From Escherichia coli (GTDB lineage Bacteria; Pseudomonadota; Gammaproteobacteria; Enterobacterales; Enterobacteriaceae): a stretch of 64,000 nt of DNA. Positions 1-3,000 of this stretch are shown in pieces (position 1 is the first letter of the stretch; each line of letters starts with the position of its first letter). The DNA is taken from the NCBI RefSeq assembly GCF_002854065.1, contig NZ_CP024147.1; one strand, given 5' to 3'. Position numbers: made by a program.

Positions 1-3000
1 TGTAAGCATTGCGAAGAGTGTGAAGACGGGCTGGAAAACTACTGTGATCACATGACCGGCACCTATAACTCGCCAACGCCGGACGAACCGGGCCATACTC
101 TGGGCGGCTACTCACAACAGATCGTCGTTCATGAGCGATATGTTCTGCGTATTCGTCACCCGCAAGAGCAGCTGGCGGCGGTGGCTCCTTTGTTGTGTGC
201 AGGGATCACCACGTACTCGCCGCTACGTTACTGGCAGGCCGGGCCGGGTAAAAAAGTGGGCGTGGTCGGCATCGGCGGTCTGGGACATATGGGGATTAAG
301 CTGGCCCACGCGATGGGGGCACATGTGGTGGCATTTACCACTTCTGAGGCAAAACGCGAAGCGGCAAAAGCCCTGGGGGCCGATGAAGTTGTTAACTCAC
401 GCAATGCCGATGAGATGGCGGCTCATCTGAAGAGTTTCGATTTCATTTTGAATACAGTAGCTGCGCCACATAATCTCGACGATTTTACCACCTTGCTGAA
501 GCGTGATGGCACCATGACGCTGGTTGGTGCGCCTGCGACACCGCATAAATCGCCGGAAGTTTTCAACCTGATCATGAAACGCCGTGCGATAGCCGGTTCT
601 ATGATTGGCGGCATTCCAGAAACTCAGGAGATGCTCGATTTTTGCGCCGAACATGGCATCGTGGCTGATATAGAGATGATTCGGGCCGATCAAATTAATG
701 AAGCCTATGAGCGAATGCTGCGCGGTGATGTGAAATATCGTTTTGTTATCGATAATCGCACACTAACAGACTGAAAAAATTAATAAATACCCTGTGATTT
801 AACATATTAACTTCGCTCTCCACTTAACTTTTTAGTTAAGGAGAGCGAAATAATATCAAAGTAGCAGTAAAACCTATAACGTAAATTCAAATTGTTAAAT
901 TAACTCCCTCCAGTACACAATACTTCTCACGTTAGTTATGAGCGATTTCTGATAGTGCCTGGTTTAATTAGAGCTTTATTATCTGCGACGTTTATTTTTA
1001 TTTAAGAGAGATCGCGATGATATCATTAAAAGCTCCGCGCAATAATTTGATGCCATATACGCAACAAAGCATACTTAATACGGTTAAAAACAATCAGTTA
1101 CCAGAGGATATCAAAAGCTCCCTGGTTTCCTGTGTCGATATATTCAAGGTTTTGATTAAACAATATTATGATTATCCTTATGATTGTCGTGATGATTTAG
1201 TCGATGACGACAAACTCATTCATCTCATGGCTGCCGTACGAGACTGTGAGTGGTCAGACGATAACGCACTCACCATAAATGTGCAGTTTAATGATTTCCC
1301 TGGATTTTATGACTGGATGGATTACCCTGATCACCCGGTTAAGTTTGTTTTTCGCATACTTGAAAATCAAAAAGGGACAGTTTGGGTATATGACCAGGAT
1401 GATGCGTTTCTTGATATTAAAGCAAATGTGCAGGCTGGACGCTTTACCGGGCTTAAGAAATTAGTGCAGTTTATCAATTCAGTGCGAACAGATTGCAAAT
1501 GTATTCTTCTTGAACACCATATGCCTTTGCTGATGGATTTGCCCCTATATTTCCAGACATCTGTTATCACTTAACCCATTACAAGCCCGCTGCCGCAGAT
1601 ATTCCCGTGGCGAGCGATAACCCAGCGCACTATGCGGATGCCATTCGTTATAATGCTCGAACGCCTCTGCAAGGTTCTTTGCTGCCGTTAACCCGTCTGG
1701 TTTGGGCATGATACTGATGTAGTCACGCTTTATCGTTTTCACGAAGCTCTCTGCTATTCCGTTACTCTCCGGACTCCGCACCGCCGTGTTCTTCGGTTCA
1801 AGTCCCAACATCCGGGCGAACTGGCGTGTTTCATTAGCCCGGTAGCATGAACCATTATCCGTCAGCCACTCCACTGGAGACGACGGAAGATCGTTGCCGA
1901 AGCGGCGTTCCACCGCTCCCAGCATGACGTCCTGTACTGTTTCACTGTTGAAGCCGCCGGTAGTGACCGCCCAGTGCAGTGCCTCACGATCACAGCAGTC
2001 CAGCGCGAACGTGACACGCAGTCTCTCTCCGTTATCACAGCAGAACTCGAACCCGTCAGAGCACCATCGCTGATTGCTTTCTTTCACGGCCACTCTGCCT
2101 GTATGTGCCCGTTTCGATGGCGGTACAGCAGGTTTTCGCTCAAGCAACAGCGCATTCTGGCGCATGATCCGGTAAACACGTTTGGCATTGATCGCAGGCA
2201 TACCATCAAGTTCTGCCTGTCTGCGAAGCAGCGCCCATACCCGACGATAACCATACGTGGGCAGCTCTCCGATAACATGGTGTATACGGAGAAGCACATC
2301 CGTATCATCAGTGTGACGACTGCGGCGGCCATCCATCCAGTCATCGGTTCGTCTGAGAATGACGTGCAACTGCGCACGCGACACCCGGAGACAACGGCTG
2401 ACTAAGCTTACTCCCCATCCCCGGGCAATAAGGGCGCGTGCGCTATCCACTTTTTTGCCCGTCCATATTCAACGGCTTCTTTGAGGAGTTCATTTTCCAT
2501 CGTTTTCTTGCCGAGCAGGCGCTGGAGTTCTTTAATCTGCTTCATGGCGGCAGCAAGTTCAGAGGCAGGAACAACCTGTTCTCCGGCGGCGACAGCAGTA
2601 AGACTTCCTTCCTGGTATTGCTTACGCCAGAGAAATAACTGGCTGGCTGCTACACCATGTTGCCGGGCAACGAGGGAGACCGTCATCCCCGGTTCAAAGC
2701 TCTGCTGAACAATTGCGATCTTTTCCTGTGTGGTACGCCGTCTGCGTTTCTCCGGCCCTAAGACATCAATCATCTGTTCTCCAATGACTAGTCTAAAAAC
2801 TAGTATTAAGACTATCACTTATTTAAGTGATATTGGTTGTCTGGAGATTCAGGGGGCCAGTCTAGCTGAGACTTTTCCCTAAAGGGAAAGAGTGTATGCA
2901 TGTGGAAAAATGGCTTCGCGAAATGTCGTCTATTCCGGAGACAGACGCGCCCATTAAGCAGGCGCTTGCGCATGGATTATTATTACACTTAAAAAATATC

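Follow-up and report, generated by a model that had tools for sequence, protein, structure and literature searches.

Background

IS2 ends in imperfect repeats, the left one (IRL) being 42 bp long, one base pair longer than the 41-bp right one (IRR); an inward promoter, PIRL, sits just inside IRL, and the A6G window at which a -1 frameshift takes place has also been described (PMC3299598). The element is active in mutation-accumulation lines of Escherichia coli K-12 (PMC5009759). The outward -35 that has been documented for IS2 is located in the right end (IRR) only (PMC3219604; PMC9330008), and the fusion promoters to which it contributes require that IRR adjoins the target gene and that a correctly spaced -10 is present in the flank (PMC9330008). 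Such fusion promoters have been made elsewhere, at ampC, acrEF and neo (listed in PMC9330008).

Here we analyse a copy of IS2 located in a 64,000-nucleotide stretch of E. coli DNA (NCBI RefSeq assembly GCF_002854065.1, contig NZ_CP024147.1), which is called the window throughout. This copy interrupts yahL; the protein encoded by this gene is uncharacterised and confined to E. coli and Shigella (PMC11057252).

Results and discussion

Identity and anatomy of the IS2 copy

The element (Table 1), which carries its transposase genes on the minus strand, is 100% identical over positions 1-1331 to many copies annotated as 'IS3-like element IS2 family transposase'. When compared with IS2A of E. coli K-12 MG1655 (insC1/insD1, b0360-b0361), 1331 of 1331 positions were aligned and 1330 of 1331 were identical, the single mismatch, at window position 2259, being synonymous. 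IRL, IRR, the A6G frameshift window and the PIRL region are identical in the two copies, which also have in common the 1331-bp length and a 5-bp target duplication, and the sole differences between them are this synonymous base and the site of insertion, which is nt 513-517 of yahL in the window and yaiX in MG1655. Of 5,426 complete E. coli genomes, 4,901 contain related IS2 copies, the median among these 4,901 being 4 per genome. A second copy was searched for in the window and none was found.

A gapped alignment of IRL and IRR matched the two ends over 42 and 41 bp, respectively, with a single 1-bp gap. A -1 shift modelled at A6G would give rise to an OrfAB transposase of 409 amino acids, and this fusion scored above the NCBIfam cutoffs for the IS2 transposase TnpB (723.9 bits, cutoff 597), the IS2 repressor TnpA (238.8 bits, cutoff 229) and the IS3 family transposase (279.5 bits, cutoff 160). 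The Pfam domains found in it above cutoff were HTH_Tnp_1, contained in the orfA part, and rve and rve_3, contained in the orfB part. Judged from its sequence, the copy is a full member of IS2 in length, ends, the two reading frames with their A6G window, domains and 5-bp duplication.

Table 1. Position of IS2, of the interrupted yahL gene and of the downstream features in the window
Feature	Position	Strand	Basis
yahL 5' fragment, 172 codons + 1 nt	1017..1533	+	ORF, junction mapping
Left GCTGA target-site duplication copy (yahL nt 513-517)	1529..1533	.	direct repeat
Complete IS2	1534..2864	-	100% end-to-end match to annotated copies
IRR, 41-bp right terminal inverted repeat	1534..1574	-	gapped IRL/IRR alignment
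orfB/insD, 301 aa, integrase-core catalytic part	1545..2450	-	identical to MG1655 InsD1
orfA/insC, 121 aa, IS2 repressor TnpA	2408..2773	-	identical to MG1655 InsC1
A6G (AAAAAAG) programmed -1 frameshift window, orfA to orfB	2450..2456	-	sequence
IRL, 42-bp left terminal inverted repeat, adjoins yahL 3' fragment	2823..2864	-	gapped IRL/IRR alignment
Right GCTGA target-site duplication copy	2865..2869	.	direct repeat
yahL 3' fragment, cut off from yahL promoter	2870..3168	+	junction mapping
Near-consensus sigma-70 promoter-like site, TTGACA-16 bp-CATAAT, 11/12	3395..3422	+	consensus scan
xtpA, 60-aa small protein, first gene downstream of yahL	3429..3611	+	position matches MG1655 b4845; ORF
yahM, 81 aa, overlaps xtpA 3' end	3581..3826	+	ORF, MG1655 annotation

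Insertion site and disruption of yahL

The junction at 1533/1534 reads ...CCTTTGCTGA / TGGATTTGCCCC... and that at 2864/2865 reads ...GGGGCCAGTCTA / GCTGAGACTTTT..., and the GCTGA direct repeat that borders the element is exactly 5 bp long and cannot be extended; a match of this length between the flanks would occur by chance with p ~ 1/1024. On the uninterrupted yahL of MG1655, the left flank extends as far as nt 517 whereas the right one already begins at nt 513, so that five target bases are duplicated, and GCTGA is present only once at the empty site both in MG1655 and in strain CUWW06. Joining of 1017-1533 to 2870-3168 rendered 816 nt, that is, 271 codons and a stop codon. As it now stands, the 5' ORF runs into IRR, where its stop codon ends at position 1574, and encodes 185 amino acids, 13 of them provided by the IS, while no promoter of its own was found for the 3' fragment in a consensus scan. 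An earlier note, drawn up from the sequence alone, had described a complete 1331-bp IS2 with both terminal repeats and intact insC and insD, flanked by 5-bp GCTGA repeats and interrupting yahL after codon 172, with flanks that rejoin in frame to 271 amino acids. All of this, with the coordinates given, is borne out by the end-to-end alignment to IS2 references, the two repeats of 42 and 41 bp, the identity of the proteins to K-12 InsC1 and InsD1, the mapping of the junctions (172 complete codons plus one base) and the 816-nt reconstruction.

The structure is best explained by one copy-out/paste-in transposition event, in which a standard IS2 with all its functional parts entered codon 173 of yahL; no observation speaks against this structure. 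The usual 5-bp target duplication, GCTGA, was made upon insertion, and the gene is now in two pieces, a 5' fragment of 172 codons to which 13 IS codons are fused and a promoter-less 3' fragment. The yahL allele of the source strain is most probably a pseudogene that has lost its function. We consider it almost certain that this is an ordinary IS2 insertion into yahL, with the transposase antisense to the gene and no read-out towards xtpA and yahM. It is an insertion of the textbook kind, such as is annotated in thousands of genomes, and it has little significance beyond annotation, in which yahL should figure here as an IS2-interrupted pseudogene and its IS2 as a potentially active copy.

Age and mobility of the insertion

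Strains 100416 and CUWW06, with 99.9% identity over 19.8 kb, are the closest relatives in the collection of 5,426 complete E. coli genomes. The yahL gene of CUWW06 is intact, and once IS2 and one GCTGA are removed, that of the window is identical to it at 816 of 816 positions; the flanks can be aligned to this strain without gaps over 3,264 bp, with 2 mismatches. All 11 hits in the same orientation and all of those examined in the opposite orientation are located at other sites, and IS2 at nt 513-517 of yahL is absent from the 5,426 genomes. The insertion at this position is therefore found in the source lineage only, and since none of the 5,426 genomes bears it, it is young. It arose after the source lineage had parted from its closest sequenced relatives, and the recent origin that had been proposed for it is thus upheld by an empty site in the closest yahL-bearing relative as well as by its absence from the whole collection.

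It had also been suggested that the element might still be mobile. IS2 transposes by way of a figure-of-eight and a minicircle with the junction promoter Pjunc, and the TGGAAA of IRR, the TAGACT at the tip of IRL and the ends themselves are identical to those of active K-12 copies. Continued transposition of this copy is plausible: no difference from those active copies was seen in any known cis site or in either reading frame, all known features required in cis and in trans are present, and K-12 itself shows IS2 activity (PMC5009759).

Strain 100416 (L009 3210-3907) lacks yahL altogether and has IS1B in its place, with yahK on one side and xtpA on the other, so that the same gene has been lost independently in association with an IS.

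Other IS2 insertions in yahL

IS2 was found within ca. 1.5 kb of yahL in 44 of the 5,426 genomes, in 11 of them in the orientation of the window and in 33 in the opposite one. The junctions of seven of the 11 were examined and correspond to nt -77, 89, 315, 372, 445, 646 and 760 of yahL, each with a 5-bp duplication of its own, which is separately confirmed for the six alleles of the gene itself (nt 89 to 760). In the remaining four genomes the element is an IS2 variant (96.7-96.9%) that, according to the match spans, lies outside yahL. Four insertions in the opposite orientation are inside the gene, at about nt 165, 210, 441 and 780. There are, in consequence, at least 10 distinct IS2 sites in both orientations inside the 816-bp yahL of other complete E. 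coli genomes, ten such alleles being those of strains B7A, MIN12, 2013C-3033, CAVP773, TK3896, 5283, 582, LH85-a, DEC5B and PSS-16; they involve the same element and the same gene as the window, but none of them is at nt 513-517. An orientation-biased hot spot was considered and rejected, since the search joins same-strand pieces only and a query with inverted IS2 gave the 33 further genomes.

Two regions of the window were analysed with the same design, the genome counts including in all cases copies shared by descent. A GC-rich control, cynX (58% GC; window 18500-19315), rendered 1 + 0 genomes with IS2, and an AT-rich control made up of the hemB-ehaB intergenic region and the 5' end of ehaB (36% GC; window 52560-53375) rendered 406 + 153 = 559 of 5,426 with IS2 within ca. 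1.5 kb; the GC content of yahL is 39% and that of its upstream spacer 31%. The cynX control seemed to support a hot spot specific to yahL, but the number of genomes at hemB-ehaB far exceeds that at yahL, so this candidate was discarded, and yahL is not special as a target of IS2. These results suggest an accumulation of IS2 in DNA that is AT-rich and dispensable, be it by target preference or by tolerance. The three counts, ordered by GC content, would fit a real regional preference of IS2 for AT-rich, probably H-NS-bound, DNA, a possibility that we regard as rather doubtful. If it were true, IS2 could be predicted to collect in genes such as yahL and ehaB, beyond the effect of weaker purifying selection, and the insertion in the window would be one data point for such a preference. 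In the window ehaB is an intact ORF of 954 amino acids (53032-55896).

It can also be the case that the loss of yahL is advantageous and that its inactivation has been selected recurrently. The independence of at least 10 other insertions inside the gene in both orientations, the 44 genomes with IS2 at yahL against 1 at cynX, and the replacement of yahL by IS1B in the other closest relative, 100416, would be in line with selection of this kind. On the other hand, the control at hemB-ehaB indicates that composition and dispensability suffice without selection specific to yahL, and the vast majority of genomes have an intact yahL, which is sufficiently conserved to be used as an E. coli/Shigella signature gene (PMC11057252). 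We therefore hold selected loss to be improbable, and an ordinary insertion remains the preferred reading.

Orientation of IS2 and downstream genes

The transposase genes of IS2 are antisense to yahL, with IRR facing the start of the gene and IRL facing the yahM side, an orientation that we take to be the classically polar one. The outward -35 motif of IRR, TGGAAA, is on the minus strand here and reads towards lower coordinates, entering the 5' fragment of yahL in antisense. The outward read from IRR is ...TGGAAATATAGGGGCAAATCCA / TCAGCAAAGG..., and the flank hexamers located at 16-18 bp from TGGAAA (TCAGCA, CAGCAA and AGCAAA) have only 1-2 matches out of 6 to TATAAT, and the consensus scan gave no site in this flank. 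Since no good -10 is available in the IRR flank, a fusion promoter is not predicted even on the side of the yahL 5' fragment. The insertions that created fusion promoters at ampC (Jaurin & Normark 1983) and acrEF (PMC9330008) involve the same element and the same IRR -35, but in those cases IRR adjoins the activated gene and a spaced -10 is present, whereas here it is IRL that adjoins the downstream genes. Thus, of the two features on which an IS-borne fusion promoter depends, IRR facing the target gene and a -10 at 16-18 bp, neither was found. Transcription leaving IS2, either as read-through from the transposase genes or from the -35 of IRR, would enter the 5' fragment of yahL in antisense, away from xtpA and yahM.

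The earlier note had put forward that an outward promoter of IS2 could drive transcription into the yahL 3' fragment and into yahM, downstream. The fusion promoters made by IS2 elsewhere, together with a scan that found no terminator-like site between yahL/IS2 and xtpA/yahM, could be seen as favouring such a mobile promoter. However, the only documented outward -35, at 1534 on the minus strand, faces the opposite way and is followed by a flank with no usable -10, and no promoter-like site was found on the plus strand from 1534 to 3394 in a scan that is a crude consensus match, missing weak or non-sigma-70 promoters and leaving PIRL of IS2 itself undetected. Moreover, yahM is preceded by xtpA, which the earlier note had overlooked and which intervenes as the next gene with a near-consensus promoter of its own. 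We consider IS2-driven read-out very unlikely, and this part of the earlier note is not supported.

The promoter-like site ahead of xtpA is the best match of the region; it ends 7 bp upstream of the ATG, and the transcription start predicted from it would be located approximately at the ATG. An xtpA mRNA that is leaderless and has a tRNA-like sequence has been described (Muto et al. 2022, as cited in PMC10767902), and the position of the promoter fits the leaderless mRNA as it is presented in that citation. The gene is a recent addition to the K-12 annotation (b4845). Inside xtpA, ARAGORN detected a tRNA-like structure, 'tRNA-Ser gga', at 3511-3591, and a search of Rfam with window positions 1-6000 rendered no family and no tRNA match at 3511-3591. 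A standard tRNA gene was rejected at this position because of the lack of an Rfam match, which leaves a tRNA-like sequence.

With an ordinary insertion in this orientation, the sole plausible effect on xtpA and yahM would be the loss of read-through from the yahL promoter, rather than activation, and such an effect would probably be minor, since xtpA has its own strong predicted promoter.

That the structure is an assembly artefact or a product of IS2-IS2 recombination instead of direct transposition is scarcely credible: although IS copies are classic sources of mis-assembly, and the source genome is itself outside the collection, in which the highest identity reached is 99.9%, the flanks show a perfect 5-bp duplication of bases that are single at the empty site, which is the signature of transposition and would not be reproduced by recombination or mis-joining, and both flanks are collinear with yahL.

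YahL and its use as a marker

Comparison of YahL with Pfam and NCBIfam rendered no Pfam family above cutoff and no NCBIfam match. Assignment to SDH_protease was rejected, its Pfam score of 17.7 bits being below the cutoff of 31.3.

Use of yahL as a PCR signature gene of E. coli/Shigella has been proposed (PMC11057252). The published 756-bp Sanger amplicon of yahL (PMC11057252) would span IS2 in this strain and would be longer by 1336 bp, corresponding to IS2 and one GCTGA. Amplicons that span most of yahL are not fully reliable, because IS2 breaks the gene in at least 10 other strains and IS1 deletes it in another. Primer matching placed the published 112-bp qPCR amplicon (PMC11057252) at about 2941-3054 of the window, wholly in the 3' fragment, and this qPCR should still work in this strain.
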